The notes under the pieces were generated by a model. That model worked only from the letters and a program-made list of their open reading frames with translations, did no database searches and was not told the DNA's origin. A DNA stretch of 64,000 nt from an uncultured Ignavibacteriales bacterium. GTDB lineage: Bacteria; Bacteroidota; Ignavibacteria; Ignavibacteriales; Ignavibacteriaceae. The stretch spans positions 499,129 through 563,128 of the forward strand of contig OY970271.1 of assembly GCA_963715745.1 (NCBI GenBank). Direction: 5' to 3'. Position numbers and translations under genes: made by a program. Positions 3,201 through 36,129 of this stretch are shown one piece after another (position 1 is the first letter of the stretch; each line of letters begins with the position of its first letter).

Positions 3201-3650
3201 TTATGTCAGAATGCTGATGAACCTTTTATTTTTATTTGAATTGAATCCGTTTCTTTCATAAAAATGTTCTGCGTTTTTGTGTTTTTCTTTTACTTCTAAA
3301 TGTAAAGCTTTAATTCCTGTTGTTCTTGCATACTTACAGATATAATCTAAAACTTCGCTGCCTATTTTTTTATTTCGGGATTCTTTCCTGATAAAGAATT
3401 CATCTATAAAAGCATCCCGACCGCCGTATTCAAGACTGAATCCAAAACACAAAATTGCATAGCCGATGAATTCATTAGATTGTTTGATCAAAAAAACTGA
3501 TCCATACTTGGGGTGGGCAAGTAATTCTGCTAATGTGCTCTTAAGTTTTTCAGATTGGGGGTGCTCCGCCGTTAATTCATGAAACTCAAGAATAAGAGAA
3601 TGGATTTCGTTTTTATATTCAATCCCGCATTTTAATATTTCTGTTTTCAT
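3201..3650 (-). CDS. GNAT family N-acetyltransferase
   Basis: 149 aa with the acetyl-CoA binding pattern FIRKESRNKKIGSEVLDYICKYAR and a C-terminal FYERNGF. Confidence 0.85.
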   Translation of the reverse strand: MKTEILKCGIEYKNEIHSLILEFHELTAEHPQSEKLKSTLAELLAHPKYGSVFLIKQSNEFIGYAILCFGFSLEYGGRDAFIDEFFIRKESRNKKIGSEVLDYICKYARTTGIKALHLEVKEKHKNAEHFYERNGFNSNKNKRFISILT

Positions 3651-3742
3651 ACAAACCTGCCCTGTTTAAAATTCTGTAACCGTTTAATTTGAATTTAAGA
3701 ATAACTAAGTTACCTGACTAATTAAATGCAAAATTTTCCGGA

Positions 3743-5617: not shown

Positions 5618-5635
5618 TTTACACTTCTGAATAAT

Positions 5636-7544: not shown

Positions 7545-8474
7545 TTGATTATGCAAACTATTTTAGGATCAACAGGAGTAATAGGCAAAGAGCTTGCTAA
7601 AGCTTTACCTCAATACACAAATAAAATAAGATTGGTAAGCCGTAATCCGAAAAAAGTTAATGACAGCGACGAACTGGTCAGTGCAAATTTGTTGAACTCA
7701 GAAGAAATTCTAAAAGCAGTTGAAGGCTCGGAGGTAGTTTATTTAACTGCTGGAATACAGTATGATATTAATATTTGGAGAAGAGATTGGCCGGTAATAA
7801 TGAAAAATGTTATTGAGGCATGTAAGAAAAACAAAAGCAAATTTGTTTTCTTTGATAATGTTTATTCGTACGGAAGAGTTGACGGCTGGATGACGGAAGA
7901 ATCCCCGATAAAACCTGACAGCGAAAAAGGAAAAGTAAGAGCTGAGCTTACAAAAATGATTATGAATGAAATTGAACAGGGAAACCTGAAAGCTATTATT
8001 GCAAAAGCAGCAGATTTTTATGGACCGGAAACACCATTGAGCTTTGTAAACATTATGGTGTTTGAGAATTTTAAGAAGGGGAAAAAGGCTCAATGGTTTA
8101 TTGATGTGAATAAAAAACATTCATTTACTTATACACCAGATGCAGCAAAAGGAACAGCTATTCTTGGAAATACTGAATCAGCATACAATCAGGTTTGGCA
8201 TTTGCCAACAAACAAAAATGTATTAACCGGAAAAGAATTTATAGAACTTTCTGCAAAGGCAATGGGTGTTAAACCGGAATATATGGTTGTAAAAAAATGG
8301 ATGACCCAAATGCTTGGATTGTTTAACAAAGTAATTAAAGAAAGTGTAGAAATGCTTTACCAGAATGAATTCGATTATCTTTTTGACAGCACCAAATTTG
8401 AAAAAGCTTTTAATTACCAACCTGTCAGTTATGAAGAAGGAATAATTGAAACTGCAAAATCAATGAAGAACTAG
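7545..8474 (+). CDS. NAD-dependent epimerase/dehydratase family (extended SDR) protein
   Basis: 309 aa with the Rossmann motif ILGSTGVIGKEL. The true start is probably ATG 7551. Confidence 0.85.
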   Translation: MIMQTILGSTGVIGKELAKALPQYTNKIRLVSRNPKKVNDSDELVSANLLNSEEILKAVEGSEVVYLTAGIQYDINIWRRDWPVIMKNVIEACKKNKSKFVFFDNVYSYGRVDGWMTEESPIKPDSEKGKVRAELTKMIMNEIEQGNLKAIIAKAADFYGPETPLSFVNIMVFENFKKGKKAQWFIDVNKKHSFTYTPDAAKGTAILGNTESAYNQVWHLPTNKNVLTGKEFIELSAKAMGVKPEYMVVKKWMTQMLGLFNKVIKESVEMLYQNEFDYLFDSTKFEKAFNYQPVSYEEGIIETAKSMKN

Positions 8475-8476
8475 TT

Positions 8477-8965
8477 TCATTTTTTGAATATCTGGTTGCT
8501 GAAAGGTGGCGTATCCGGAATTTTAACCTTGTTGAATTCATAATTCACTGCATGATGACAGGCGTTGCAGGTGTTAGTGAGCGTGCTAAAACTGTTTTTG
8601 AATGAGGAAAGGTTTTTATTTTTTACTGCAACCTTGACACTGTCGAGCGGAGCTTCAATAATCGGCAGCACATTTAATTCTTCTCTTTCAGATTCATACT
8701 TTTTTATATCTTCAATGGTTTCTGATATTTCATCAATTTCAAACTCAGCTAGTTTCCAGTTTTTATTTATTCCGGCAAACCAGAGTTTTGCATGATGGAT
8801 CTGAATGTTGCTCATAAATTCTCCGAATCCAGGTTTATATGAATTGTCAACTTTCTTTTGAAGTTCTGCTACTTTTGATTGCAGTTCAGATATCTGTGTT
8901 GAATTATCATTACAAGAAGAGAACATCAATACAATAAATAAAGCAAAAATTATATTTCTCATCAT
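8477..8965 (-). CDS. lipoprotein with a single C-terminal CXXCH heme-c motif (class II cytochrome c / cytochrome c'-like)
   Basis: 162 aa. Has a lipobox (LMFSSC), a helical and charged body, and CNACH about 25 residues from the C-terminus. Confidence 0.5.
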   Translation of the reverse strand: MMRNIIFALFIVLMFSSCNDNSTQISELQSKVAELQKKVDNSYKPGFGEFMSNIQIHHAKLWFAGINKNWKLAEFEIDEISETIEDIKKYESEREELNVLPIIEAPLDSVKVAVKNKNLSSFKNSFSTLTNTCNACHHAVNYEFNKVKIPDTPPFSNQIFKK

Positions 8966-17964: not shown

Positions 17965-19038
17965 TTATCTCCCTTTAAATTTCTTCACATCTTTCATAGC
18001 TGAATGAAAGAACTTGCCCCACTTTTTATCCTTCTTTCTCTTTTCAACATAAGACATTTCATTGTACTGCGACTCTTTATAAATCTTAATGTAATTGTTA
18101 TAACGCTCTTCAGATATTTTCCCCTTTGCCACCGCTTCCAGAACTGCACAGCCGGCTTCGACAGTGTGAGTGCAGTCTTTGTATTTACATTGATCTGCAA
18201 GTTCATCAATTTCATTGAACGTATCACCAAGTCCCAACTCATTTGAGATAACGCCGAGCTCTCTCATTCCCGGGTTGTCAATTATTATTGCACCGTTTTG
18301 CAGAACGATAAGTTCGCGGCGAGTAGTAGTGTGTTTTCCTCTTCCGTCTTTTTCTCTTATCGGCTGAGTTTTGTAGAGGTCCTGATGAATTAGATTATTA
18401 AGCAAAGTTGTTTTGCCAACTCCCGATGAACCAAGCAAACAGTAAGTCTTAAATGGTTCAAAAAGGGTTTTAATATTTTCTATATCACTTTGGTTGTTGT
18501 TGCTGAAAGAAGCAATCGTAACATCAGGCAGGATTTTGCGAATGTCATTTTTCTTTTGCTCAATTTCTTCTACACTGATAAGATCGCTTTTACTTAAGAA
18601 TATTGCCGGAGTTATTTTGCCTTCGTTTATCATTACCAGGTAGCGTTCGAGTCTTCTTAAATTAAAATTGGAATCCAGCGACTGCATAATGATTGCAGTA
18701 TCTATGTTTGCAGCAATAAGCTGGTAATCAACTTTTTTGCCGGAAGCTTTTCTTTTCAGTAATGATTTACGTGGAAGGACGTCGTGAATAATTGCAAGCT
18801 CATCATCATCGAAGAGCTGAGCATAAACAAAATCGCCGACAGCGGGCAGATCGAACGAGTCCTCAGAATTAAATAAAAACTTTCCTGTCAGCTCTGCATA
18901 AATATCTTTTACGCCGTTGGAAACAACAAAGCTGTTCTTGTTTACGCTTATTACTCTTACAATGTTGAAATCAGTTTTAGATAAATCAACTTTATCTTGA
19001 AACCAGTTTTTGAAGCCGAGGTTTTGTAGGTTGTTCAT
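17965..19038 (-). CDS. rsgA: ribosome small-subunit-dependent GTPase A
   Basis: 357 aa with an OB-fold N-terminus, circularly permuted GTPase motifs (GSSGVGKTTLLNNL, DGRGKHTTT) and a Zn knuckle CKYKDCTHTVEAGCAV. Confidence 0.95.
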   Translation of the reverse strand: MNNLQNLGFKNWFQDKVDLSKTDFNIVRVISVNKNSFVVSNGVKDIYAELTGKFLFNSEDSFDLPAVGDFVYAQLFDDDELAIIHDVLPRKSLLKRKASGKKVDYQLIAANIDTAIIMQSLDSNFNLRRLERYLVMINEGKITPAIFLSKSDLISVEEIEQKKNDIRKILPDVTIASFSNNNQSDIENIKTLFEPFKTYCLLGSSGVGKTTLLNNLIHQDLYKTQPIREKDGRGKHTTTRRELIVLQNGAIIIDNPGMRELGVISNELGLGDTFNEIDELADQCKYKDCTHTVEAGCAVLEAVAKGKISEERYNNYIKIYKESQYNEMSYVEKRKKDKKWGKFFHSAMKDVKKFKGR

Positions 19039-19199
19039 AAAAAATTTTCGATTAGAACATTTTTTAATTGATTTTTCGCGTTAAAGCTCTAACAAACTAA
19101 TTGAATACGTAATATTTCACTTGCATACTTAACCAACAACCCTTATGTTTGTAGTGAACCACTGAAAATGCGAATGCATCGTAGGTGGTGTTAGAATTT

Positions 19200-19229
19200 A
19201 AGGCGATCTGTTCAGGTCGCCTTTTTTAT
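19200..19229 (+). terminator. hairpin plus T-run; canonical on the plus strand, and also directly downstream of the minus-strand DUF3800 stop
   Basis: The hairpin aaggcgatctgttcaggtcgcctt is followed by ttttttattt on the plus strand. On the minus strand it follows the TAA stop at 19228-19226 but has only a weak T tail. Confidence 0.5.
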
Positions 19230-20017
19230 TTCGGATGATAAACAATTCCATATTCATTGCTTCTGGTAGCTTTCAGATTAAAAACTGGTATCAAAATATC
19301 CAGCCAACTTCTTATCTCTGAAAACTCAGTAAAATCTTTTAAGCGATTTGGCAATTCTCCCAGATCAAAGTTTTTAATCGTATAAAGAGTAACTAAGTAT
19401 GAGATTAAATCTGATATTTGAATGAAATACGATTGTTTTGAGTCTTTTGGTAATGGATCCTCTATCAGGTATTTAATTTCTTTTCTATAATGCGAAGTCG
19501 AGTATTTTGAAGGAATGAAATTAATTCTTTGAATTTTTCTTGTTGTTTTCATCATTTTCCCGACACGACCGGGATCAGTTATTATCATAAATCTATCATT
19601 TGGATTTGAGCTTGTTTCAAGATCATTATCAATTCTTTGAATTGAATATGTTAGAGCCGTATCAAGCACTTCAAATTTGGGATTACTTAATCTTTCTTTA
19701 ACTATTACAGTGTTAATAATCTTGAGATCTAACCTTGAAATTAATTGACAAAAAAAGGAAATGATTTCTTTTTTATCATCATTGCTAATTTTTAAATCTT
19801 TGTAGGGATTTTTATCTAGCAAAAAATACTTGGTGTGAAATTCGATTTTAACCGGGAAATTGAATTCATTTTTTAATCTTCTTCTAAAATCCAAAACGGC
19901 TTCATAATTTTCTTTCCAACTTAAATAATGCATATATGTTGCTGTTAAACAAAATAATGGAGAGGAATAAACCGGAAATCCGTCGTCCCCGGATTCGTCA
20001 TAATAAACAATTCTCAT
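19226..20017 (-). CDS. DUF3800 family protein
   Basis: 263 aa. The N-terminal MRIVYYDESGDDG (DESG motif) and overall length fit DUF3800. Confidence 0.7.
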   Translation of the reverse strand: MRIVYYDESGDDGFPVYSSPLFCLTATYMHYLSWKENYEAVLDFRRRLKNEFNFPVKIEFHTKYFLLDKNPYKDLKISNDDKKEIISFFCQLISRLDLKIINTVIVKERLSNPKFEVLDTALTYSIQRIDNDLETSSNPNDRFMIITDPGRVGKMMKTTRKIQRINFIPSKYSTSHYRKEIKYLIEDPLPKDSKQSYFIQISDLISYLVTLYTIKNFDLGELPNRLKDFTEFSEIRSWLDILIPVFNLKATRSNEYGIVYHPK

Positions 20018-20110
20018 AATGTAGTATTATTAAATAATAGAATAATAATTTCTCGTCTTAAGTTAATTTTATTTTCAGGGCAAACACAATGGTACCATGG
20101 CAGATATCTT

Positions 20111-20222
20111 AACTGTTTTTGTTTACGCTTATTAGTCTTACAATAAGGAAGTCGTGGGTTTTAGCTAAATCAACTTCATCCTTAAACCAATTATCGAAGC
20201 AGAGGTTTTGTAGGTTGTACAT
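20111..20222 (-). repeat. decayed copy of rsgA codons 1-37 (copy 2)
   Basis: Translates to MYNLQNLCFDNWFKDEVDLAKTHDFLIVRLISVNKNS*, against the rsgA N-terminus MNNLQNLGFKNWFQDKVDLSKTDFNIVRVISVNKNSF. It aligns at the nucleotide level to 18931-19038 with one 3-nt indel. Confidence 0.9.
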
Positions 20223-20224
20223 TT

Positions 20225-20884
20225 TTAGTCTATTGCTCGGGAATCAATTGAACCTTTTAGTGCTGCCCGTATCAACAAAATAACTACACCTAAATACCAC
20301 AATCCTGTAAACATTCCAACGTGTGGAAAACCATGAACGTAAGGCGGATCGGGGAAATAGTATATGTTAGCTCCAAGCAGGGGAACAATCGCGACAAAAA
20401 TTCCTGTCCAGCCGATAATTCTTCCAAAACGTGAATCGCGGATTAAGTTAATAGCAAAAAATAATGTTCCAAGCCCAATAAAAATATCGAACGCAACGTC
20501 AAGTCCAAGGACTACATCCCAGATTCGTTGTCTCACTATTGAATTTAATTGTTCATCACCTGAAGGAGCTGTTGAGTAATTGATAGCCAGCTGGACAATT
20601 ATCATAGCAGTAACCAAAGCACCGGCTAATGAGTTAAGAATAGCTGCCAGCTTAATCGTGGGTGAATTACGACGAGTCAACAGAATATGAGCAAGTGATA
20701 TACTCGCTATTGCGAGAGCGGGACCAAAACTTCCACCTAAAATTAATTGAGGTATTCGAGGGACAGCGACTAATATCAGGACAGGATAAACACAGCAAGC
20801 GACAATACCTGCAACTATTCCAATTTTCACCCAGCTTCTTATATTCTCCTCGTGAGGATTACTTATAATTGTTTTTTCTATCAT
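20225..20884 (-). CDS. multi-pass membrane protein, unknown function
   Basis: 219 aa with about 6 hydrophobic segments. The stop codon lies 2 nt upstream of the ATG of rsgA-fragment copy 2. Confidence 0.7.
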   Translation of the reverse strand: MIEKTIISNPHEENIRSWVKIGIVAGIVACCVYPVLILVAVPRIPQLILGGSFGPALAIASISLAHILLTRRNSPTIKLAAILNSLAGALVTAMIIVQLAINYSTAPSGDEQLNSIVRQRIWDVVLGLDVAFDIFIGLGTLFFAINLIRDSRFGRIIGWTGIFVAIVPLLGANIYYFPDPPYVHGFPHVGMFTGLWYLGVVILLIRAALKGSIDSRAID

Positions 20885-20947
20885 AATAGGTTCCTTATAA
20901 CTAAATAAAAATTAAAGTTGATTCTGTAACTTTTTGCGAATAATTAC

Positions 20948-20996
20948 AAAACTTTTGAACACCAATTATCGAAGCCGGGTTTTGTATGTTATTCAT
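20948..20996 (-). repeat. decayed copy of the rsgA 5' end (copy 3)
   Basis: The minus strand reads atgaataacatacaaaacccggcttcgataattggtgttcaaaag, against rsgA atgaacaacctacaaaacctcggcttcaaaaactggtttcaag. It carries a 1-nt deletion that shifts the frame. Confidence 0.75.
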
Positions 20997-21016
20997 TGTG
21001 ATATCATTAATCCGGG

Positions 21017-21511
21017 TTAATATCTAATCAATTTATGCCCAAGTTTGAACAAGGGTTTTAATAATGAAAGTATAATAACTGTAAAAGCCAGAATAGCTAT
21101 TATCAAATAATAAACATTAATTCCCGCATCTATATACCGCGAAATAATTATTATTGATAAAGGCAGGTTTAATAAAAGTGCTGTTATCAATCCGGGTGCG
21201 TATTTTTTTAATAAAATAGTTGCGGCTAAGTGAGGAATTATGGTGTTTAAGCCCATCATTCCTATAAAGCCAAGATATATATAACTAAAAGCACTACCAT
21301 TAGTGTTGTCAATTATTTCGGCAACCGTAACAAGATAACCAATAATAGTAACAACTATAACTGCAAATATAAATTGGTTTCTCTCAACGGGTTGATGGAA
21401 TTTTTTTGCGTGCTTCGACCATTCAGGCAGCCAGACAGATTCTTCAATATTGTGAATTGTAAAACCTAAAAGGAAAATAAATTTTAGTGCCAGGGCAATA
21501 CTATCATTCAT
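21017..21511 (-). CDS. HXXEE domain-containing membrane protein
   Basis: 164 aa with the FTIHNIEESVWLPEW motif and 4-5 TM segments. Confidence 0.75.
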   Translation of the reverse strand: MNDSIALALKFIFLLGFTIHNIEESVWLPEWSKHAKKFHQPVERNQFIFAVIVVTIIGYLVTVAEIIDNTNGSAFSYIYLGFIGMMGLNTIIPHLAATILLKKYAPGLITALLLNLPLSIIIISRYIDAGINVYYLIIAILAFTVIILSLLKPLFKLGHKLIRY

Positions 21512-21560
21512 ATGTTATCTTTTAACCAATTGTTAATCCGAGGAATTGCGGATTGTTCAT
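21511..21560 (-). repeat. decayed copy of the rsgA 5' end (copy 4)
   Basis: The minus strand reads atgaacaatccgcaattcctcggattaacaattggttaaaagataacat (MNNPQFLGLTIG*). It aligns to rsgA atgaacaacctacaaaacctcggcttcaaaaactggtttcaagataaagt. Confidence 0.7.
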
Positions 21561-21576
21561 ATTTTTTCATCCAAAC

Positions 21577-21605
21577 TTCCCAATTCTTCCCAAAGAAAAC
21601 AACGG
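21577..21605. repeat. 29-bp direct repeat, copy A (ttcccaattcttcccaaagaaaacaacgg)
   Basis: Identical to copy C (23262-23290) and 27/29 identical to copy B. Confidence 0.9.
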
Positions 21606-21625
21606 GGAGATTTAAAAATCGTGCT

Positions 21626-22100
21626 ATCCCCTCTTGGGAGGGGCGAGGGGTGGGTCGGATAGATTGTAAAGAAAAAAATTATTATGTTACTGACAAATGA
21701 AGAGAAGGAAAATCATTCCATATAATCCAAAGCTAAAAGAATACGCTAGGAAACTCAGGAATAACAGTACTTATACAGAAGTTCAGCTATGGAATTATAT
21801 GAAGAAAAAACAACTTCGTGGTTATGACATTGACCGGCAGAAACCAATAGACAATTATATTGTGGATTTCTATTGCAAGGATCTTATGCTGGCAATTGAG
21901 ATTGATGGTGAAAGTCACTATGGAAACACTGATAAAGACAAAAAGAAAGATAAGAGACTTAATGAACTTGGTGTTACCGTTCTCAGGTTTGATGATTTGG
22001 ATATTATATATAAACTGGATAAAGTGCTTGAGAAGATAGAGGAATGGATTGATGCAAATGAGAAGTTGACCCACCCCTAAATCCCCTCCAAGGAGGGGAC
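21626..22100 (+). mobile_element. DUF559 endonuclease gene bounded by about 31-bp G-rich terminal inverted repeats
   Basis: The left end is atcccctcttgggaggggcgaggggtgggtc (21626-21656). The reverse complement of the right end (22068-22100) is gtcccctccttggaggggatttaggggtgggtc. The DUF559 stop codon lies inside the right repeat. Confidence 0.6.
21697..22080 (+). CDS. DUF559 endonuclease-domain protein (Vsr/restriction-endonuclease-like fold)
   Basis: 127 aa with YIVDFYCKDLMLAIEIDGESH and VTVLRFDD, typical of DUF559. Confidence 0.85.
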   Translation: MKRRKIIPYNPKLKEYARKLRNNSTYTEVQLWNYMKKKQLRGYDIDRQKPIDNYIVDFYCKDLMLAIEIDGESHYGNTDKDKKKDKRLNELGVTVLRFDDLDIIYKLDKVLEKIEEWIDANEKLTHP

Positions 22101-22127
22101 TATAAGTGAAAGATTTGTTCAACTAAG

Positions 22128-22156
22128 TTCCCATTTCTTTCCAAAGAAAACAACGG
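22128..22156. repeat. 29-bp direct repeat, copy B
   Basis: Reads ttcccatttctttccaaagaaaacaacgg, with 2 mismatches to copies A and C. Confidence 0.85.
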
Positions 22157-22163
22157 TGAGTGT

Positions 22164-23135
22164 TTAATCCTTCTCTTGGTGTTCATTTACTTCTCCGTTG
22201 TAAGAAAGCTTCCCATCTTTGAAGTTGCCTTTCACAATGAGTTCTCCATCAATCCCCTGTCCGAATATTATTTTTCCTTCAACATCACCACCGGCTTTAA
22301 CATCTGCTGTGTAAGTAAGCTTTCCGGACGCTGGTGAGCCGTCAACAGTTCCGTTGAATGATCCAAAACCTATCCATTCTTCCTTGTAAGTTCCGGGAGG
22401 TTCACCGCAAGGACCATAAACCAGAATACGGAAATCTATTTCAAGTTTTCCTGTTAATGTTCCGGTAATATTATAAGGTTGTTTTATTTCCACAATGCAG
22501 ACTTTCCCAATTTCATTCCTTACCGGTGTCCCTAAAGGTGGGCCAACTGGTTGAAAAGTTCCTTCAACCTCCATTTCAGGTTTATCAATGTTTCGGATAA
22601 TTTGATCCTCTTTGGTTGGCAATCCAAGCATTGCGGTGATGAGCCAGTTGCCATTCTGCTTAAGCATTACCCACGTACCGCGTGCTTTCCTAGTATGAAG
22701 TTTTATTCCCAGTGTGTCTTGTCCCCCGGTTGTTGTCTCGACGTTGACTACCGCAACATCTTCAGCTATAAATCTGACTGAATTCAGAACGAACGTCCCC
22801 CTTCGTCCCGGTTCCTGCTTATTGAAAGAACTCTGCCAATAAGCCCGCCACCAGTTTTCGATGGCTTCCCTTCCTTGTAACCTGGGCAAATTGAACATTA
22901 CGAAATCGGCATCTTCAGTGAAGAATGCCGCAAGAGTTTCAGGGTTATGGGTGTTAAATGTACGTTGATACTCTTCGATCCGTGTGAATACTGCAGCAGA
23001 ATCACTATCTGTCTGTGCCACCGCCATACTGGAATACACAGTGTTGAAAGTAATTAAAGTTATAATCAGCACAGTCATATTTACGAAATTTACCAGGTTG
23101 AGCGTCGATGACAGCCTACTAATTTTTACATTCAT
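22164..23135 (-). CDS. secreted two-domain protein: NTF2-like (DUF4440/SgcJ-EcaC type) N-domain plus unassigned beta-rich C-domain
   Basis: Has a signal-like N-terminus and the NTF2-like pattern AAFFTEDADFVMFNLPRLQGREAIENWW...GTWVMLKQNGNWLITAM. The C-terminal 130 aa are Gly/Lys/beta-rich. ATG 23135 is preceded by aggaaggag; the track ORF starts 27 nt earlier. Confidence 0.7.
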   Translation of the reverse strand: MNVKISRLSSTLNLVNFVNMTVLIITLITFNTVYSSMAVAQTDSDSAAVFTRIEEYQRTFNTHNPETLAAFFTEDADFVMFNLPRLQGREAIENWWRAYWQSSFNKQEPGRRGTFVLNSVRFIAEDVAVVNVETTTGGQDTLGIKLHTRKARGTWVMLKQNGNWLITAMLGLPTKEDQIIRNIDKPEMEVEGTFQPVGPPLGTPVRNEIGKVCIVEIKQPYNITGTLTGKLEIDFRILVYGPCGEPPGTYKEEWIGFGSFNGTVDGSPASGKLTYTADVKAGGDVEGKIIFGQGIDGELIVKGNFKDGKLSYNGEVNEHQEKD

Positions 23136-23261
23136 TTTTTTCTCCTTCCTGAAATAAAACAAATGTCGTTATCAACCGAACTCCTTACCTGCATAATGAT
23201 ATTATAACTAAACCAACCAGAGCAAACGGGTGATAAAGGATATTAATTTTCTGTGATGAAT

Positions 23262-23290
23262 TTCCCAATTCTTCCCAAAGAAAACAACGG
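23262..23290. repeat. 29-bp direct repeat, copy C
   Basis: Reads ttcccaattcttcccaaagaaaacaacgg and sits immediately downstream (minus sense) of the aldo/keto reductase terminator. Confidence 0.9.
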
Positions 23291-23293
23291 TTT

Positions 23294-23329
23294 AAAACAA
23301 AAAAACCGCAGAAGTTTTCTCCTGCGGTT
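23294..23329 (-). terminator. rho-independent terminator of the aldo/keto reductase gene
   Basis: On the minus strand, the hairpin aaccgcaggagaaaacttctgcggtt is followed by tttttttgtttt. Confidence 0.8.
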
Positions 23330-23445
23330 AAATAATATTTATAGTGTTGTTTCCCCAAACAGAAAAGATCCTGAAACCCTCCATAGGCGGGCAGGTAAGT
23401 TCAGGGGGAAACATCGGTATTACAATTTATTATTGTATCATTTCA

Positions 23446-24450
<1,005 letters not shown>

Positions 24451-24488
24451 TCATCTTTTTCTATTTTGGAATTGTCATTATAAATTAC

Positions 24489-24773
24489 TCAGGACAAAAC
24501 ATCTCTTATTTTTTCCATCTTATCAAAAACAGATTTTGCAAACGGACACAACGGAATTATTTTGATTTTATTTTCACGCGCATATTTAACCACTTCCATT
24601 AAAATTTTTTTACCGATGTTTTGTCCACGGTAAGCATCATCTACTTCTGTATGATCAAGTATCATCCTGGTTTCACCAGCAAATGTATAACTCATTCTGC
24701 CAGCTTCTTTATCATCATCAAATGCACCAAAGTAACCTTTTGTGCCGGAATCAATTTGTTTTATTTCGATCAT
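24489..24773 (-). CDS. small GNAT-family N-acetyltransferase (YjdJ-like)
   Basis: 94 aa with LDHTEVDDAYRGQNIGKKILMEVVKYARENKIKIIPLCPF. Confidence 0.8.
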   Translation of the reverse strand: MIEIKQIDSGTKGYFGAFDDDKEAGRMSYTFAGETRMILDHTEVDDAYRGQNIGKKILMEVVKYARENKIKIIPLCPFAKSVFDKMEKIRDVLS

Positions 24774-24774
24774 A

Positions 24775-24984
24775 TTACTTTTCTTTTATGCTGAGTGCGC
24801 CGGAAGGACATTTAGCTACCTGGCTGATAAGTTCTTCTGTTGTTGCATTTTCAGGTTTAATCCACGGATGCACTTTTGTATTATAAACTTTCGGCAGAGT
24901 TTTTACACATATACCTGAATGCTGACACAATTTCGGCTGCCAAACTATTGTTATCTCGCCGTTAGGATATTCTTTGCGTTCCAT
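24775..24984 (-). CDS. small Cys-containing protein, divergent 4Fe-4S mono-cluster-like
   Basis: 69 aa with the pattern CQHSGIC...CPSGAL. Confidence 0.5.
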   Translation of the reverse strand: MERKEYPNGEITIVWQPKLCQHSGICVKTLPKVYNTKVHPWIKPENATTEELISQVAKCPSGALSIKEK

Positions 24985-25026
24985 TTATATCTCCTTTAAA
25001 CTTAATTAATAATCAAGTTTGATTTT

Positions 25027-25862
25027 TTAATGCTTCCCAATTTTAACTGACATCATTGTCAGTGAGCCGCCCACAGCTTTATCATTGAACAAACTTACTT
25101 CTTCATTCTCTTCTTTCAAAGCTAGAGCATAGATCAATGGCAGATAATGTTCAGGTGTTGGAACAGCCAGATTAATTTCCTTTCCCTGTGATTGATAATT
25201 AATGAGCTGCTTGTGATCGCCGGACAGAATAAATTTTTTCATCTTTTCACTTACTTCACTTGCGCCCAGTCGTAACTATAGTTTACTTCGTTCAATCTTG
25301 TCCAGTCAACCATACGAAGATTGTGAACCATATTTCCGCTGCCGATTATAAGCACACCTTTTTTACGTAATGAGCCATGCTCCCTTGCTAATTCATAATG
25401 GTAATGCGGTGATTGAGTATAATCAAGACTCAGTTCAATTACAGGAACATCGGCATCAGGGTAAAGATGTTTTACAACAGACCACGCCCCGTGATCAAGT
25501 CCCCAATTTAAGTCCAGTCCCACTTCAGTTTTTTTAATTATACTTTTTGTTTGCTTTGCAAGTTCGGGACTTCCCGGGGCAGGATATTGAACTTCGTACA
25601 ACTCTTTCGGAAACCCTCCGAAGTCGTGAATGGTTTGGGGCTTCTCCATCGCGGTAACAAAAGTTCCTTTAGTTTCCCAGTGAGCAGATACAACTAAAAC
25701 AGCATTTGGTTTTGGAATTTCTTTCCCGATTTTTCTAAAGCCTTGCACAAATTCATTTTCCTCAATCGCATTCATCGGGCTTCCGTGTCCAAGAAACAGC
25801 ACGGGCATTTTCTCCGTGCTGTTAAATGGTTCTGTTATTTTATTTAATTCATTTAGTTTCAT
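25027..25862 (-). pseudogene. 4,5-DOPA dioxygenase extradiol (YgiD/LigB family) with an internal frameshift
   Basis: Track ORFs 25251..25862 (...NYSYDWAQVK*) and 25027..25242 (MKKFILSGDHKQLINY...PTPEHYLPLIYALA) are two halves of one family. The frame of the downstream ORF reads ...GASEVSEKMKKFILSGDH back to 25265. Two extra nt (gc, 25264-25265) separate TGG(W) from that frame. Confidence 0.65.
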
Positions 25863-25890
25863 TAAAAGTCATGACGTTGTTTCATATTAT

Positions 25891-26643
25891 TTATACAGCA
25901 GTATATCCGCCATCAACAGTATAATAAGATCCTGTCACAAAAGAAGATTTTGAAGAAGCCAGCCATAAAGCCAGTTCTGCAACTTCTTCTGATTTACCCA
26001 AACGACCTATGGGATGTTTGGTCTCTAAGAATTTTAAGGTTTCCTTATCCAGGTTTTTATCAAGCATCGGAGTTGAAATAAAACCGGGACCAATTGAATT
26101 TACCCGTACATTTTTTGTTGCATATTCAACTGCAGCATTTTTTGTTAAACCAACAACACCATGTTTTGCAGCAACGTATGCTGATGAATTTGCAAAGCCC
26201 ACTGATCCAAGAATAGAAGCCATATTAATAATACTTCCTTCTCCACTTTTTAACATTGCGGGAATTTGATACCGCATTCCATAAAATACGCCTGATAAGT
26301 TAATTGCAATAACTTTATCCCATCCATCAACAGGATATTCACCAACCGGAGCGCTTGGTCCGCCGATGCCGGCATTATTGACTGCAATGTGCAACCTACC
26401 ATAATGTTTGACTGTCTGATCAACAAGCTGCTTATTCTCTTCCGGTTTAGAAGAGTCAGCTTTTATAAAAATCGCGTCGCCTTCTTTTGATTTTATTTCA
26501 GAGACGGTTTCATTTCCACCCTTTTCATCAATATCGGAGACAACAACTTTAGCACCTTCCGTAGCGTAAAGTATTGCTGTTGCTCTTCCAATTCCGGAAC
26601 CAGCTCCTGTGACTATTGCAACTTTGTTTTCTAACACTTTCAT
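25891..26643 (-). CDS. short-chain dehydrogenase/reductase (classical SDR)
   Basis: 250 aa with TGAGSGIGRA, NNAG and YVAAKHG. Confidence 0.95.
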   Translation of the reverse strand: MKVLENKVAIVTGAGSGIGRATAILYATEGAKVVVSDIDEKGGNETVSEIKSKEGDAIFIKADSSKPEENKQLVDQTVKHYGRLHIAVNNAGIGGPSAPVGEYPVDGWDKVIAINLSGVFYGMRYQIPAMLKSGEGSIINMASILGSVGFANSSAYVAAKHGVVGLTKNAAVEYATKNVRVNSIGPGFISTPMLDKNLDKETLKFLETKHPIGRLGKSEEVAELALWLASSKSSFVTGSYYTVDGGYTAV

Positions 26644-26725
26644 AATTTCACCTTTTTAAAACGATAGTTAAACAATTTCCATTTAATAGAATGTACAATA
26701 ATAAAAATTGAAATCAACATTTTAT

Positions 26726-27271
26726 TTATGCAGCCTGTGATGCCGCCTGAACTTTGTTGAATTCAGCAAGGATTTCAATTTTAACTTCATTGCCTACAAC
26801 AACACCGCCGGCTTCGGTTAATGCATTCCACTTCAAACCAAAATCGAAACGATTAATTTTTGCGGAAATTTCAAAACCTGCAACTTCGCTTCTGCCCAGT
26901 CCTTCAACAATTCCATTATAGATAACATCAAGAGTAATTTCTTTTGTTATATTACGTATCGTAAGGTTACCTTTTACCTTAAGTTCGTGATCAGATATTT
27001 TCTTCACAGAAGTAGATGTGAAAGAGATCTTATCAAAATTCTCAGCATCAAAGAAGTCAGGTGATTTTAAGTGAGCATCACGATCATTATTTCTGGTATT
27101 GATGCTGTTTGTCTCTGTTTCGAATTTAATCACTGCATCACTAAAGTCTTCTTTATTTGTTTCTATGGATGCATCAAATTTATCAAAGTTACCTCTTACA
27201 GTTGAAACCACAAGGTGTTTTACTTTAAAATTTACTTCAGAATGTGTTGGGTCAATTTTCCATGTTGTCAT
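26726..27271 (-). CDS. YceI family polyisoprenoid-binding protein
   Basis: 181 aa with WKIDPTHSEVNFKVKHLVVSTVRGNFDKF. Confidence 0.9.
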   Translation of the reverse strand: MTTWKIDPTHSEVNFKVKHLVVSTVRGNFDKFDASIETNKEDFSDAVIKFETETNSINTRNNDRDAHLKSPDFFDAENFDKISFTSTSVKKISDHELKVKGNLTIRNITKEITLDVIYNGIVEGLGRSEVAGFEISAKINRFDFGLKWNALTEAGGVVVGNEVKIEILAEFNKVQAASQAA

Positions 27272-27492
27272 TGTCTTGTTCCTTTATTTTTGTCTGATAT
27301 TATTTTGTTTAATTACTACTCAAACATAACTTGAAAGGACCCTCTTGTGCATTCACATAGGGTAAATAAAAAGTTACCATAGGGTAATCAATAGAAACGC
27401 TATGTAATGCTGAACTCGTTTCAGCATCTGTTTTAAGTATCGAGATTCCGAAATAATTCGCTGCGGCGTACAGAATGACTTTAAACAAGCAA

Positions 27493-28071
27493 TTACTTTT
27501 GTGAAAGCTCTTTTCTTATTCTGCTTAAAGATTGCGGGGTAATACCGAGATATGATGCAATATGATTTTGCGGTACCTGTTCTAAAAGTTTCGGATAAGT
27601 TTTAATAAATTTAAGGTATCTTTCTTCTGCCGAAGCACTAAGTGAATCAGCAATTCTTTGTTGCGTGGCTATATGATTAGCCTCAATTAGAAGGCGAAAG
27701 AAGCGCTCCATTTTCGGACAGTTATCGAGCAATCCTTCTCTTGCAGATCTTTCAAGCAAAAGAACTTCGGAATCCTCAAGAGCATCGATATTGTAATTTG
27801 ATGGTAAACCGGAAAGGAAACTATTTAAATCAGAAACCCACCAGTCTTCAATCGCGAATTGAAGTATGTGCTCTGTTCCCTTGCTATCAATTTCATATTC
27901 CCGCAGACAGCCTGAGTTTACAAATCCAACATATCTGCATACATCACCTTCGTTTAAAAGGAATTGGTGTTTTTTCAACTTCTTAGAAACAAAATACTTC
28001 GTACAGATATTAAACTCTTCATCTGTAAGATGGACTCTTTTTTCGATATGTGTTCGCAGTAATGAAAACAT
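27493..28071 (-). CDS. Crp/Fnr family transcriptional regulator
   Basis: 192 aa with a cNMP-binding-like N-domain and the C-terminal HTH IASYLGITPQSLSRIRKEL. Confidence 0.9.
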   Translation of the reverse strand: MFSLLRTHIEKRVHLTDEEFNICTKYFVSKKLKKHQFLLNEGDVCRYVGFVNSGCLREYEIDSKGTEHILQFAIEDWWVSDLNSFLSGLPSNYNIDALEDSEVLLLERSAREGLLDNCPKMERFFRLLIEANHIATQQRIADSLSASAEERYLKFIKTYPKLLEQVPQNHIASYLGITPQSLSRIRKELSQK

Positions 28072-28215
28072 TTATACAAACTTAAAATAATGTAAGGTTG
28101 TAAAAAATAGCTTAACGCAAAGCGAAGAATACCATTGTCGTTTCGAAAGAACAAAGTGACTGCCTGTCCACCGAAGCTTCAACGTAAGTGGGAATCTTTT
28201 TTATGCGTGCGGGTA

Positions 28216-28242
28216 AACTAAAAAGGGGCACTTAGTGCCCCT
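28216..28242 (-). terminator. rho-independent terminator after the BNR/T9SS gene
   Basis: On the minus strand, the hairpin aggggcactaagtgcccct is followed by ttttt. Confidence 0.8.
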
Positions 28243-28258
28243 GGATATTAATGCTTCC

Positions 28259-29731
28259 TTATTTCATCAGAACCATCTTTTTTGTTTCTGTATTTTTACC
28301 TGTAAAGATGCTGTAAAAGTAAACACCGCTTTGAAGCTTACTCCCATCAAATTCAATTTGGTATATTCCGGCAGACTTTTCTTCATTTAACAATGTTTCG
28401 ATTTCATTACCCAGTATATCATAAACCCTTATCTGAACTTCTGATGATTGAGGGATAGAGTATTTTATTATTGTTTTTGGATTAAAAGGATTGGGATAAT
28501 TCTGATCAAGCATAAATGTATTAGCAGGGATATTTATATCATTAATATTTGTAACCATACCACCGGAATTATCGGTAAATAAAACAAGCCCGGTTTGAAT
28601 GAGATACGATCCCGGTATGTACCATCTCGATTTGTTCACTAGCTTTGCATCCCTGAAAATGTAATTAAAAAGCTTGGGGTGCAGAGTGTAATCCCAGTTG
28701 TTCCCGCCATCCAGGGAAATTTCAATGAAAGGAGTATTATCAATAATCGGCTGATGAAAACCGTAAACCAGTACAACCCCGGAGTCACGGAGAGCTTCCA
28801 TTCCCGCAATTATGTGCTGGACCGTGTATGTGTGCAATTCATTCCAGCTTATTCCCAGGTCAGTCGATTTATAAATAAATGCATTATCGGAAAGAGTAAA
28901 TCCCTCAATTAAAATATTATTTAAATCAACACAGGTAACACGGGAAACAGAGTAGGTGCCGCCGACAAAACTTTTTACCCAGGTTTCACCTGCATCAGTT
29001 GTTCTCAGAACTATTCCATTCCCGGAATCTTCACCTACAGCAATACCGGTTTGATTATCAATAAAATCAATGTCATTTATCAGCAGGTTCAAAGTGAACG
29101 GGTAAACGTAATACCAGTTGTTTCCCCCGTCTGTTGTTTTTAATATGCAGTAACTGTTGCCTGTGGGAGAAATGCCAGTAACGCAACCTGTCTGATGGTC
29201 AATAAAAGACATTCCGACCAAAGCATGGACAGTATCATCAAATGAACCTTTCGGGTGCCACGATAATCCTCCGTCAGTTGTTTCAATAAAGTAGCCTGTG
29301 AATTCTCCCTGACGCAAAGATTCGTTCACAAAATCTTCAGGGTTATTTTGAATGTCAGGTTTATCCGGGAGAGGATGCTGTGTATTTGTTGTTGTCCAGG
29401 TGACGGATTTATTATATGCCCCTGTACCATAAGCTAGTGAATCGTTGAACATCTGAACTTTTTCCAATATTCTCATTGAGTCAGGTATTGATGATTCAAG
29501 CCAGGTGTCCCCGCCGTTGTTCGTATAATAAACAGAACCGTAAAACTGTTGTGTGGCAACATAACCATAAAAGCCGCCAGTTATTCCGTGATCAGGGTTG
29601 TTAAAATCAATACTCAACATTACGTGCATATCACCCGGCACACCCGGTAATGTTTGCTGCATCCATTGCGGTTTTAAGTTTGTAGCAAATGTAAAAAAGA
29701 GAATTGCGATAAAGTAAATCATCTTTTTCAT
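28259..29731 (-). CDS. BNR/Asp-box repeat beta-propeller protein with T9SS C-terminal sorting domain
   Basis: 490 aa with a signal peptide and repeated Asp-boxes (TTDGGLSWH, TTDGGNNWYY, TTDAGETWVK, STDLGISWNE, SLDGGNNWDY). The C-terminus reads NYPNPFNP...VYFYSI...KKMVLMK. Confidence 0.85.
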   Translation of the reverse strand: MKKMIYFIAILFFTFATNLKPQWMQQTLPGVPGDMHVMLSIDFNNPDHGITGGFYGYVATQQFYGSVYYTNNGGDTWLESSIPDSMRILEKVQMFNDSLAYGTGAYNKSVTWTTTNTQHPLPDKPDIQNNPEDFVNESLRQGEFTGYFIETTDGGLSWHPKGSFDDTVHALVGMSFIDHQTGCVTGISPTGNSYCILKTTDGGNNWYYVYPFTLNLLINDIDFIDNQTGIAVGEDSGNGIVLRTTDAGETWVKSFVGGTYSVSRVTCVDLNNILIEGFTLSDNAFIYKSTDLGISWNELHTYTVQHIIAGMEALRDSGVVLVYGFHQPIIDNTPFIEISLDGGNNWDYTLHPKLFNYIFRDAKLVNKSRWYIPGSYLIQTGLVLFTDNSGGMVTNINDINIPANTFMLDQNYPNPFNPKTIIKYSIPQSSEVQIRVYDILGNEIETLLNEEKSAGIYQIEFDGSKLQSGVYFYSIFTGKNTETKKMVLMK

Positions 29732-29917
29732 ATTAATATTTTTTTATTCGATTGATGTTTCTATGAAGTAACTTTTCCGGAATTAGTCTAAGACGGTTTC
29801 AAATTACAAAGTTTTAAAGGAATAAGAAAATGTGAGGAGAACCCATCCCTTTCCATAGGAATCCCTTTGTGAAAATCCCTCGTGGAGTCCGATTGACTCG
29901 CCGAAGGACTTTCTGAT

Positions 29918-32533
29918 TTATTTATTAAACTTCAGTTTTCCCTTTTCACCAACGGTAATTTTAATCGTATCACCATCGCCGAAGTTACCTGCAAGCAGTT
30001 CCTGTGCAAGAGGGTTTGCAACGTACTTTTGTATTGTGCGTTTCAAAGGTCTTGCACCAAAAGTTACATCGTAACCAATGTTCACAAGCCAGTCTTTTGT
30101 TTCATCACCAATAATTAATTTAATATCTCTTGACTTCAGCATTTGGGCTACGCGGTTCAGCTGTATCTCAACAATCTGCCGTATTTCTTTATGAGTTAAC
30201 GGCTTGAAGAGAACAATCTCGTCAATCCTGTTCAGGAATTCCGGTCGTATGCTTTGCCTGAGCAGATCGCCAAGCTGTTCACGAAGCTTGCCCATTACAA
30301 TTTCAATCTGCGCATCATCAACACTGAACAAACTTTCCTGCAGCAAATGCGAACCGATGTTTGAAGTCATTATAATTATAGTATTCTTAAAGTTAACAGT
30401 TCGTCCCTGGTTGTCTGTAAGTCTTCCATCATCCAGAACCTGCAGCAGAACATTGAAAACATCCAGATGAGCTTTTTCAATTTCATCAAGAAGCACAACC
30501 GAGTAAGGTCTCCTGCGCACGGATTCGGTAAGCTGTCCGCCTTCTTCATAACCAACGTATCCCGGCGGTGCACCGATCAGCCGCGAAACAGAAAACTTTT
30601 CCATATACTCACTCATATCAATCCGTATCAATGCGTGCTCGTCATCGAATAAAAATTCTGCGAGTGCACGTGCAAGTTCGGTTTTGCCAACGCCAGTAGT
30701 TCCTAGAAATATAAACGAACCTACCGGTCTATCGGCATCCTGCATACCTGTCCGTGCTCTGCGGATTGCATTTGCAACTGCGGAAACAGCTTCATCCTGT
30801 CCGATAACTCTTTTGTGAAGTTCGTCCTCGAGTCTGAGCAGCTTGCTTCTTTCACTTTCCAGCATCCTGCTTACAGGAATGCCGGTCCACTTTGCAACTA
30901 CTTCTGCAATATCTTCCGCATCAACTTCTTCCTTAAGCATTTTTTTATCTTTTTGAATTTTTGCAAGCTCCTGCGTTTCAACTTTCAAATACTTTTCAAG
31001 CTCCGATATTTTTCCATAACGGAGCTCTGCAACCTTGCCAAGGTTCCCTTCCCTTTCGTATTTTTCTGCGAGAGTTTTTGCATTTTCAATTTCACTTTTC
31101 ATCGAGCGAATTTTCTGGATTCTTTCTTTTTCAAGATTCCAGTGTCCTTTTAATACTGTTCTTTGCTCATTTAAATCACTCAATTCTTTTTTCAATTCAT
31201 CAAGTCGTTTTTTGGAAGCATCATCTTTTTCACGCTTCAAAGCTTCGCGTTCAATTTCAAGCTGCTTAACTTTTCGTTCAAGTGCATCCAGCTCTTCCGG
31301 CATTGAATCAATTTCAATCCTTAGTTTTGAAGCCGCTTCGTCGATAAGATCGATTGCTTTATCGGGAAGAAATCGATCGGTGATGTATCTTTCCGAAAGT
31401 TGAGATGCAGCCACAATTGCACCGTCGGTTATTCTCACTCCGTGATGAACTTCATAGCGTTCCTTCAATCCTCTTAAAATAGAAATGGTATCTTCTTCGG
31501 AAGGTTCACTCACGAGCACAGGCTGGAATCTTCTTTCGAGCGCAGCATCTTTTTCAATGTATTTTCTGTATTCATCAAGTGTTGTAGCGCCAATAGTGTG
31601 AAGCTCGCCTCTTGCAAGTGCAGGCTTTAAAATGTTTGCGGCATCCATTGAACCCTGAGTTGAACCAGCGCCAACAACTAAGTGAAGCTCATCAATAAAT
31701 AATATTATTTCGCCATTTGATTCGGTTACTTCTTTAACAACGGCTTTCATTCTCTCTTCAAACTGTCCGCGAAACTGAGTTCCGGCAACAAGCGCACCCA
31801 TATCGAGCGCAACAATTCTTTTTGTCTTTAAAGTTTCAGGAACGTCACCGGAAACAATTCGGTGTGCGATACCTTCAGCGATTGCGGTTTTCCCTACTCC
31901 CGGCTCTCCAATTAATACAGGATTATTTTTTGTTCTTCTCGATAAAACCTGCAAGACTCTTCGTATCTCTTCATCTCTTCCAATCACCGGGTCAAGCTTC
32001 CCGATGCGTGCCATTTCATTTAAATCTCTTCCGTATTTTTTTAGTGATTGATAAGTGTCTTCAGGATTTTGAGAAGTTACTTTTTGTGTTCCTCTTACTT
32101 CTTTCAATGCCGTAAGAACTGCATTTCTTGAAATACCGTTATCGCGGAGAAGCTGTCCGGCTTTTCCTTTGTCTTCACTTAATGCAATTAAAAGGTGTTC
32201 GGTTGAGACGTACTCATCCTGTAACTTTTTAGCTTCATCTGCGGCTGTGTCAAGAAGTTTTGCAGTATTCTGCGACATCTGCTGGTTACCTACTCCTGCA
32301 CCTGAAACTTTCGACAGTGTCTCGAGCATTTCATTTGCTTTCAACTTTATTGAATTAGTATTGCCGCCGGCTTTTTTCATAATTGTGTCGGCAAGTCCGC
32401 CGTTTTCCTGTATAAGCGAAGCGAGCAGATGTTCCGGCTCGATTATTTGGTTGTTATAATTCTGTGCAATCTCAATTGCAGATTGAAATGCTTCCTGAGC
32501 TTTTACCGTTAGTTTATTAAAATTAAATGTCAT
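29918..32533 (-). CDS. clpB: ATP-dependent chaperone/disaggregase ClpB
   Basis: 871 aa with two AAA+ modules ([18 protein letters not shown]) and a long middle coiled coil. Confidence 0.97.
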
Positions 32534-35664: not shown

Positions 35665-36129
35665 TTAGTTAACAGAAATTTCAATCTCTTTTGGTTTTAC
35701 TTCATCAGCTTTTGGAATAGTGATGGTTAATTGTCCATCTTTGAAATCTGCTTTAATCTTATCTGCTTTAATTTCTTTTGGAAGAGTGAATGATCTGAAG
35801 TATTTTCCAAAAGTTCTTTCAATGCGATGAGATCTTGCATCTTTGTTTTCTGTTTCCTGAACTCTTTCGCCGCTGATGCTGAGTTCACCATTTGAGAAAG
35901 AAATCTTAACATCTTTCTTGCTAATTCCTGGAAGGTCAGCTTTAATTAGATAATTATCTTTGTCTTCAAAAATATCTGTCAACGGCATCCATACAGCATT
36001 TTCGTATCCGTTATCTTCTTTATTCTCAGCAGGGAAGCCGAACCTGTTTTCAAAATCTCTGAATACTCTGTTGAATTCTCGTTCAACATTGAAAAGATCT
36101 TTTACCGGATTCCATCTTACTAGTGTCAT
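35665..36129 (-). CDS. Hsp20/alpha-crystallin small heat-shock protein
   Basis: 154 aa with an alpha-crystallin domain (ADLPGISKKDVKISFSNGELSISGER...FGKYFRSFTLP). A strong GGAGG lies upstream of the ATG. Confidence 0.95.
   Translation of the reverse strand: MTLVRWNPVKDLFNVEREFNRVFRDFENRFGFPAENKEDNGYENAVWMPLTDIFEDKDNYLIKADLPGISKKDVKISFSNGELSISGERVQETENKDARSHRIERTFGKYFRSFTLPKEIKADKIKADFKDGQLTITIPKADEVKPKEIEISVN

Follow-up and report, generated by a model that had tools for sequence, protein, structure and literature searches.

A ~50-nt module at the head of co-oriented gene cassettes between clpB and an rsgA paralog in Ignavibacteriaceae

How do unrelated genes come to stand in one row at a single chromosomal place, each behind the same short sequence? 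The question is raised by a 64,000-nucleotide stretch (the window; C1:499129-563128, contig OY970271.1) of the complete 3.87-Mb genome of an uncultured Ignavibacteriaceae bacterium (GCA_963715745.1), in which three copies of a 29-mer lie between an aldo/keto reductase (AKR) gene and displaced 5' fragments of rsgA. A preliminary description, made from the letters of the window, took the copies as the limits of two cassettes and the repeat itself as the original upstream region of rsgA. We find that a ~50-nt module, CCGTTGTTTTCTTTGGRAAGAATTGGGAAGTTTRAT..AGAAAAT, has the 29-mer as its invariant core, and the best reading of this module is a promoter/operator-type cassette head that probably doubles as a portable homology arm.

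Anatomy and distribution of the module

The 29-mer, TTCCCAATTCTTCCCAAAGAAAACAACGG, occurs on the plus strand at 21577-21605 (copy A, no mismatches), 22128-22156 (copy B, two mismatches) and 23262-23290 (copy C, no mismatches), which reproduces the positions and mismatch counts first given for it; 0.00 matches were expected by chance in 100 dinucleotide-preserving shuffles. At up to three mismatches these are its only sites in the whole genome (reversed-pattern control, 0), and an nhmmer profile of 64 foreign copies recovered the same three (E 1e-14, 8e-13 and 5e-9), the next match having an E of 0.33. The match count, the profile search and the single cluster of copies found in each carrier genome of the family rule out a generic dispersed repeat: the 29-mer is specific to this locus. 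Copies A and C are identical across the 29 nt. The 29-nt core of the preliminary description is exact, but the similarity really extends to ~50 nt, through a more diverged 3' part that differs among A, B and C.

The sample comprised 151 Ignavibacteriaceae genomes from 56 genera, of which 20 genomes from 11 genera carry the module, with all copies of a genome in one cluster and on one strand (reversed-pattern control, 0); the mapped loci place this cluster between clpB and an rsgA paralog. We collected 67 rsgA loci from other family members, turned all of them with rsgA on the plus strand, and mapped 77 loci (L-numbers denote compared loci and G-numbers compared genomes; L123 is a metagenome contig). 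The rsgA loci hold from one to about eight module copies, always upstream of rsgA, and all 67 copies in them are co-oriented with rsgA. In the in-register alignment conservation spans ~50 nt and the first ~33 nt are nearly invariant; the left 17 nt (the left half, GTTGTTTTCTTTGG) are almost invariant regardless of cassette. The 68 copies with at most five mismatches in the 29-nt core precede dozens of unrelated gene families in many genomes. The gene after the module is co-oriented with it in 60 of 67 cases, and the 29-mer ends a median of 75 nt before the ATG (minimum 15, up to ~790). Plasmids and phages gave no module match, only one chance-level match to the terminator half, and the motif is absent upstream of hsp20, cbpA, htpG and clpB.

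Between clpB and rsgA, 98 genes are co-oriented and 16 opposed. The cargo is diverse, with 168 Pfam families in 131 non-redundant array open reading frames (ORFs), including many redox/stress-type enzymes, methyltransferases and membrane proteins; many units have a module copy of their own at the 5' end, and a terminator closes many of them. Variation at module positions 17-54 follows the downstream gene family (21 pairs, rsgA excluded; label-permutation p = 5e-4), and no co-variation of these positions with the upstream gene family was found; the left 17 nt are equally conserved across all pair classes. The downstream linkage implies that the travelling unit is the module together with the gene that follows it, with exchange points in or left of the invariant half. 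Copies within a locus differ by 6.44 positions per 33 nt and copies from different loci by 6.35; since within-locus copies are no more alike, they are either old or imported. A histogram of high-scoring segment pair boundaries around the module was uninformative, since the conserved module lets every alignment run through.

The mapped loci share a conserved frame of mnmG and mnmE, then hsp20, a cbpA/dnaJ-like gene, htpG and clpB, followed by a variable stretch of 0.2-10 kb, the rsgA paralog and further variable genes. The window shares this frame, and its variable region is the entire clpB-rsgA stretch (19039-29917, 10.9 kb) rather than the ~4.3 kb proposed for the hotspot in the preliminary description. 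Both the cumulative GC-skew minimum (~530 kb in the genome, ~30.9 kb in the window, at 10-kb resolution) and the flip of gene orientation between hsp20 (minus strand, 35665-36129) and mnmE (plus strand, from 36418) place the array a few kilobases from the likely replication origin, with its genes co-oriented with replication.

The simplest states of the locus are clpB-terminator-module-rsgA with a 230-nt element in between (L035/G008), clpB-terminator-module-HXXEE-rsgA (L043) and terminator-module-rsgA (L055, L049). In L055, L049 and L035 only the module and 15-35 nt lie between a strong terminator and the rsgA ATG, and in six relatives (L055, L049, L035/G008, L033, L079 and G141) the module starts 44-84 nt ahead of that ATG. 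The junction at copy A, gtttggatgaaaaaatATGAA, matches the L055 junction, gtttgatgcaaaaaaATGAA, nearly base for base, and the empty site of L049 agrees too. The proposal that the repeat is the original rsgA upstream region is supported by these six relatives and by the copy A junction. In ~20 mapped loci the terminator hairpin that the window has next to copy C, CCGCAGGAGAAAACTTCTGCGG with a T-run, directly precedes at least one module copy, irrespective of the gene before it (clpB, AKR, GNAT, c2 or c57).

History of the three copies and their cargo

The functional sense of the array is the minus strand, as for all neighbouring genes except the DUF559 gene. The features of the window are, in order of position:

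17965-19038, minus strand: intact rsgA paralog, 357 aa (PF03193, NCBIfam TIGR00157), the downstream anchor of the array
19039-21016, minus strand: older part of the pile-up, made up of the next four features
19226-20017, minus strand: DUF3800 gene
20112-20222, minus strand: rsgA fragment 2
20225-20884, minus strand: DUF4386-like gene
about 20958-20997, minus strand: rsgA fragment 3
21017-21511, minus strand: HXXEE-family membrane protein cassette (Pfam PF13787)
21522-21560, minus strand: displaced rsgA 5' fragment 4, 13 codons, MNNPQFLGLTIG and a stop
21554-21605, minus strand: module copy A, 29-mer core 21577-21605, with an intact GAAGTTTG box
21628-22099, plus strand: element with a DUF559 endonuclease-like gene (21697-22080) and G-rich inverted repeats of the repetitive extragenic palindromic (REP)-like type at 21628-21656 and 22068-22099
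22105-22156, minus strand: module copy B, 29-mer core 22128-22156 with two mismatches, beginning 7 nt past the NTF2 stop codon
22164-23135, minus strand: NTF2/SnoaL-like (DUF4440) protein, the cassette between copies C and B
23239-23290, minus strand: module copy C, 29-mer core 23262-23290, heading the NTF2 cassette
23304-23329, minus strand: intrinsic terminator hairpin AACCGCAGGAGAAAACTTCTGCGGTT with T-run, forming with the module a conserved unit of ~75 nt
23446-24447, minus strand: AKR gene (Pfam PF00248, E 1e-75)
29918-32533, minus strand: clpB, 871 aa, the upstream anchor of the variable region, preceded by htpG, the cbpA/dnaJ-like gene and hsp20

Read in the minus sense, the AKR gene is followed by the terminator, copy C, the NTF2/SnoaL-like ORF, 7 nt, copy B, the inverted DUF559 element and copy A; then come 16 nt, the 13-codon rsgA fragment, HXXEE, an rsgA fragment, the DUF4386-like gene, a further rsgA fragment, DUF3800, the intact rsgA paralog and a UbiA-type prenyltransferase gene. 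Several details of this anatomy had already been described correctly: copy C lies beside the AKR terminator (13 nt from the hairpin), in the minus sense 16 nt (21561-21576) separate copy A from the ATG (21560-21558) of the 13-codon fragment, the NTF2/SnoaL ORF has the position given for it, and the DUF559 ORF is indeed inverted.

Copy C is the head of the NTF2 cassette and copy A is the original rsgA head. The window's unit of terminator and copy C is 93% identical to L055 over 75 nt; within copy C the -7-like box has diverged (ATTCATCAC) and the downstream AGAAAATTAAT is retained. The AKR gene is itself a variable member of the array, its position differing in L049, L051, L057, L069, L090, L098 and G001. 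In L123 the 3' end of an AKR gene is followed by a terminator, a module, an NTF2 ortholog (64% protein identity), a second module 10 nt past the stop codon and a SnoaL-like gene. The same NTF2-module-SnoaL junction is present in L122, where the downstream module is intact and the upstream one degenerate. The recurrence of the AKR-terminator-module-NTF2-module order in L123 speaks against the copies having arisen as duplications upon insertion in this genome, as the preliminary description had implied; they are inherited heads. The NTF2-like protein has a signal-peptide-like N-terminus, with a hydrophobic stretch ending in MAVAQT that is conserved in the L122 ortholog, and its C-terminal ~150 residues matched no Pfam family.

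The 3' part of copy B, CTTAGTTGAACAAATC, resembles CTTAGATGCAGAAATTAC of L123, where the SnoaL-like gene comes next, and the match of copy B (CTTAGTTGAACAAATCTTTCAC) to the L123 copy (CTTAGATGCAGAAATTACTTTAC) holds up to the start of the DUF559 element. This match identifies copy B as the head of a SnoaL-like cassette that has been lost here; it is an orphan head, followed by a separate REP-bounded DUF559 insertion. We had entertained TTGAACAAATC, which follows copy B, as a relic of an rsgA start and dropped this idea when the alignment with L122 and L123 showed it to be the 3' part of the module.

The DUF559 element ends in G-rich inverted repeats (CCCCTCTTGGGAGGGGCGAGGGGTGGGTC and its complement) that belong to a dispersed REP-like repeat with about eight other sites in the genome, including 559542, 836351, 882034, 2819534, 3402426 and 3417330; a bare pair of such arms with no gene between them lies at 1,267,322-1,267,410. 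In G001, a genome of the same genus, an 87%-identical DUF559 element with the same ends lies directly after clpB, also inverted and without flanking module repeats. The element is thus no cassette of the array but a small mobile unit in its own right, which inserted behind copy B. Of the two cassettes thought to be delimited by the repeat, the NTF2 cassette between C and B stands, but the B-A interval is a separate insertion bounded by its own inverted repeats.

That these intervals vary among relatives, as anticipated, is plain from the comparison. G001 lacks the rsgA paralog, NTF2 and HXXEE here, and upstream of AKR it has two module copies that stand before other genes, in addition to its DUF559 element elsewhere; G003, G144, G053 and G141 share just clpB and rsgA with the window (plus UbiA in G141), with none of the cargo. 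HXXEE is common to L037, L043, L047 and L058, and the rsgA start always follows it by ~20 nt. L037 has before HXXEE the same junction with a 36-nt rsgA fragment as the window (...AATTGG up to the junction, TTAAAGA after it), and L047, like the window, has an additional rsgA fragment and cassette. Orthologs of the rsgA paralog in other Ignavibacteriaceae are mostly 71-92% identical.

Two observations concern other genes of the array. The extradiol dioxygenase-like gene of the window (25027-25862) is read in two ORFs (25251-25862 and 25027-25242), suggesting a frameshift, and the ORF at its position is longer, 275-296 aa, in L049, L065 and L079. The AKR ortholog at L069:8182-9205 lies in two frames (residues 1-214 and 214-333) and is a probable pseudogene or assembly error.

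Promoter-like features, duplicated blocks and competing explanations

The promoter consensus of the Fibrobacteres-Chlorobi-Bacteroidetes (FCB) group is TTG-N17-23-TAnnTTTG (quoted in 10.1101/172254). In the genome under study TAnnTTTG occurs in the sense orientation upstream of 20 of 44 tRNA genes, as against three antisense, and 15 have a TTG 17-23 nt further upstream; these counts indicate that the genome uses FCB-type promoters. The module reads GTTG-N20-GAAGTTT(G/A), which agrees in part with an FCB sigma-A promoter, namely in its spacing, the A and the TTT. Its spacer holds a 6-2-6 inverted repeat, TTCTTT-GG-AAAGAA, placed as an operator would be, and TTCTTTGGAAAGAA in the module is a putative protein-binding sequence. 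In the basal state the module is all that separates the terminator from rsgA; unless rsgA depends on read-through for its expression, its promoter must therefore lie in the module. From these features we infer that the module is probably a promoter/operator. Other signals were considered and set aside: a sigma-70 consensus scan returned promoter-like sites no more often than shuffled sequence and is uninformative for this clade; a sigma-54 (-24/-12) promoter, sought by eye, would have its GG and TTGG 2 nt too close; and none of the CIRCE, HAIR, CtsR, CRP/FNR and parS consensus sequences fits the module.

The module is not the only sequence duplicated around insertions. Duplicated rsgA 5' ends of 24-132 nt flank insertions in at least 11 loci, and L037 has a fragment of 378 nt. 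At the other end of the gene, the last 60-77 nt recur downstream of rsgA in G003:C1:1522186-1522714 (L024), L032:13349-13416 and L081:1962-2028, around insertions of 0.8-2.3 kb, so that the rsgA 3' end is also an insertion point; G003 has three tandem copies of it with a 227-nt period. The last ~80 nt of clpB recur 0.2-0.7 kb beyond the end of the intact gene, flanking small insertions, in L090:5544-5625, L083:7586-7676 and L100:1137-1248. In the module-less G014 (L026, C10) an exact 44-nt repeat of its own rsgA upstream region, consisting of the hairpin CCGCAAGAAAACTGCGG and 24 nt, flanks a 2-kb insertion (3613-3656 and 5610-5653): the same behaviour with a different sequence. Duplication of several unrelated blocks at variable lengths cannot be accounted for by a single att site, and recombination on any sequence conserved between donor and recipient would suffice.

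A ~230-nt non-coding element was also observed between two module copies at L035:1070-1269, L032:4875-5073 and 8435-8655, L030:7316-7536 and L036:6667-6914. It has end hairpins (CCCACGGATTTATCCGTGGG and CCCACGACTGAAGTCGTGGG) and gave only sub-threshold Rfam matches. At L079:7002-7665 its ends enclose an IS200-like (Y1 transposase) gene, of which the short form looks like a miniature derivative.

Recombinases are absent from the arrays. None of the 1055 ORFs of the rsgA/module loci encodes a full tyrosine recombinase, and comparison of eight of the genome's tyrosine recombinases with these ORFs gave one match, a 72-aa fragment; neither recombinase family is among the 25 most recurrent Pfam families of the 131 array ORFs. 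The genome itself has nine tyrosine recombinase matches, the nearest ~295 kb from the array, and no serine recombinase (PF00239). Its sole intI-type gene (C1:1,787,777-1,788,715; TIGR02249, 417.7 bits against a cut-off of 265) lies 1.27 Mb from the locus. Of the 151 family genomes, 70 have an intI-type gene at E <=1e-40 (64 of them above the cut-off), with no clear association with the module (12 of 20 module genomes vs 58 of 131 without it); eight of the 20 module genomes have none, and wherever array and intI share a contig they are at least 1.2 Mb apart. A host dif candidate, TTTGTCCGATAATCTATATTATGTAAACT, at 2,382,924, near the GC-skew maximum, is canonical and shares no arm with the module. 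The profile and recombinase searches thus turned up no att-like partner or recombinase elsewhere in the genome of the kind the preliminary description had envisaged. Three specific candidates were rejected: a serine recombinase with a 2-bp centre at TTCTTT-GG-AAAGAA, as the genome has no PF00239 gene; a Xer/dif-type 11-6-11 site in 28 bases, as the true dif is unlike the module; and the integron integrase as driver, as it shows neither linkage nor clear association.

The route that we infer would need no dedicated recombinase. The module has its basal place between the terminator and the start codon of the rsgA paralog, where it most likely serves as rsgA promoter and operator, and the clpB-rsgA stretch forms in part of the Ignavibacteriaceae a hypervariable pile of mostly single-gene, co-oriented units. 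Cassettes would pass between genomes by ordinary homologous recombination, with the module, the terminator and the clpB and rsgA ends acting as short portable homology arms; a cassette with two flanking copies could enter any one-copy genome by double crossover, and new duplications would arise from occasional illegitimate joins. In the window, the HXXEE insertion later split the first 36 nt off the original rsgA behind copy A, and the cassette of copy B was lost, with the REP-bounded DUF559 element now in its place.

Several points weigh against this reading. The -7-like box is missing its first T and ends in G in only about half of the copies, and window copies B and C have no TTTG box. The near-invariant left 17 nt exceed what a -33 box needs and would equally suit the binding site of a recombinase or regulator, and no regulator able to bind the inverted repeat of the module was identified. 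For RecA, homology arms as short as 30-50 nt and 80-95% identical make poor substrates, and we know of no DNA-uptake route in these organisms.

The module could instead be an att-type site served by a recombinase encoded elsewhere (an integron integrase, a Xer-type or another tyrosine recombinase), with cassettes leaving as circles that re-insert at the module, as in integrons or pdif modules. Its fixed orientation, its restriction to one locus and its place between co-oriented single-gene cassettes would fit such a site, as would the inner inverted repeat TTCT(T)..(A)AGAA and the near-invariant GTTGTTTTCTTTGG, since the downstream linkage begins at about position 17 and puts the exchange points in or left of the left half; and the genome does encode a true integron integrase and seven other tyrosine recombinases. 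Set against this are the lack of a recombinase in or beside any array and of any serine recombinase in the genome, the distance of the integrase and its lack of a clear association with the module, the lack of an attC-like hairpin (alifold -0.4) in a module that lies at the cassette 5' end and not the 3' end, a real dif unlike the module, and the four other unrelated blocks duplicated around insertions at variable lengths of 31-132 nt (378 nt for the L037 fragment), in G014 with a different sequence altogether. We regard an att-type site as unlikely on this balance. We think it quite unlikely, too, that the array is an integrase-free or trans-served platform, a 'promoter-first integron', in which the module would be expression signal and recombination site at once and a host or unrecognised enzyme would cut in GTTGTTTTCTTTGG.

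An RNA-level role, as a conserved leader, an intercistronic processing or stability site or part of a small RNA, would agree with a module orientation that strictly follows that of the downstream genes, with the conserved A-rich AGAAAAT after the module and with the lack of a terminator between NTF2 and copy B, where the module is probably transcribed. It is made improbable by the failure of the module to match Rfam at E <=1, the lack of consensus structure or covariation (alifold -0.44 kcal/mol, 68 copies), a start-codon distance that varies from 15 to ~790 nt, and the ~20 loci in which the module directly follows a strong terminator, so that a transcript must start in or after it. In a further reading, the NTF2 and DUF559 insertions would have generated all three copies in this genome as fresh target-site or tandem duplications, as suggested by the identity of A and C over 29 nt and by repeats flanking inserted genes; we hold this to be highly improbable, given the same-context counterparts elsewhere (of C and B in L123, of A in L055 and L043), the differing 3' parts, the lack of greater likeness within loci than between them, and a DUF559 element that has its own inverted repeats and in G001 sits elsewhere without module repeats. 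The earlier remark that the repeat is no typical transposase target-site duplication agrees with its ~50-nt length, diverged 3' parts and counterparts in other genomes.

Relation to known systems

Integrons combine an adjacent intI gene with attC sites, imperfect hairpin-folding palindromes at the 3' end of co-oriented, mostly promoterless single-gene cassettes. Like sedentary chromosomal integrons, the clpB-rsgA array holds mostly single-gene, co-oriented, diverse cassettes at one chromosomal place, with a conserved repeat marking each and a probable promoter at the array. Unlike them, it has no adjacent intI, and its repeat is an unstructured ~50-nt module at the cassette 5' end and not a folded attC: it has no fold, it co-varies with the downstream gene, and it begins only 7 nt after the NTF2 stop codon. 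The strong co-orientation of its genes is integron-like; yet a promoter-like head and a terminator come with many of its cassettes, and the duplication extends to the ends of the flanking genes. Sites of the dif/pdif type are 28 bp long, with an 11-bp XerC arm, a 6-bp centre and an 11-bp XerD arm, and resemble the host dif. The module shares no arm with the host dif, and its copies are all direct, never alternating.

In Rhs/contact-dependent inhibition (CDI) displacement arrays, recombination in the conserved part of a gene swaps in a module, and displaced C-terminal toxin tips, immunity genes and anchor fragments remain. Anchor-gene fragments are likewise left between modules here, but the displaced part belongs to a housekeeping-type GTPase paralog, namely its 5' end and promoter region, and unrelated stress/redox-type genes make up the cargo. 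Ordinary transfer hotspots are variable gene sets between conserved core genes that differ among close relatives; the genes between clpB and rsgA conform to this, whereas the repeated module and the anchor fragments give the locus an internal cassette grammar that hotspots lack.

Putative mobile promoters are highly similar upstream sequences before unrelated genes, shared between genera, whose route of spread is unknown (Matus-Garcia, Nijveen and van Passel 2012; PMC3575422); operationally they are at least 80% identical across ~50 nt in front of non-homologous genes. The module stands before unrelated genes and is shared between genera in the same way, and it falls under this operational definition; it differs in that its copies are confined to one locus per genome and one orientation, in an ordered array between two anchors. 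Tycheposon islands at tRNA genes stack integrative elements with tyrosine recombinases and replication genes (10.1101/2020.12.28.424599). As in these, successive arrivals push older cargo inward and incomplete target copies stay behind, which here are rsgA 5' ends and the module; unlike tycheposons, the units of the array are ~0.3-2 kb long, no element-borne recombinase or remnant was seen in them, and what they target is a protein gene, at its 5' region. The present analysis adds a module consensus for the whole family, the linkage between module and downstream gene, the histories of the NTF2 and DUF559 units, and the comparison with the integron integrase.

The repeated grammar of terminator, module and gene would explain how foreign single genes are inserted and expressed at the same time without mobile-element machinery in the array. 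Were the module a recombination site, the array would be a second, integron-like way of cassette capture. The module is also of practical use as a marker: one PCR primer placed on its invariant half would give access to the Ignavibacteriaceae cassette pool in metagenomes, much as attC primers are used for integrons. Should the module be a regulated promoter, the array would be a growing stress/redox-type regulon beside the heat-shock cluster and the origin, with a content that differs between genera.

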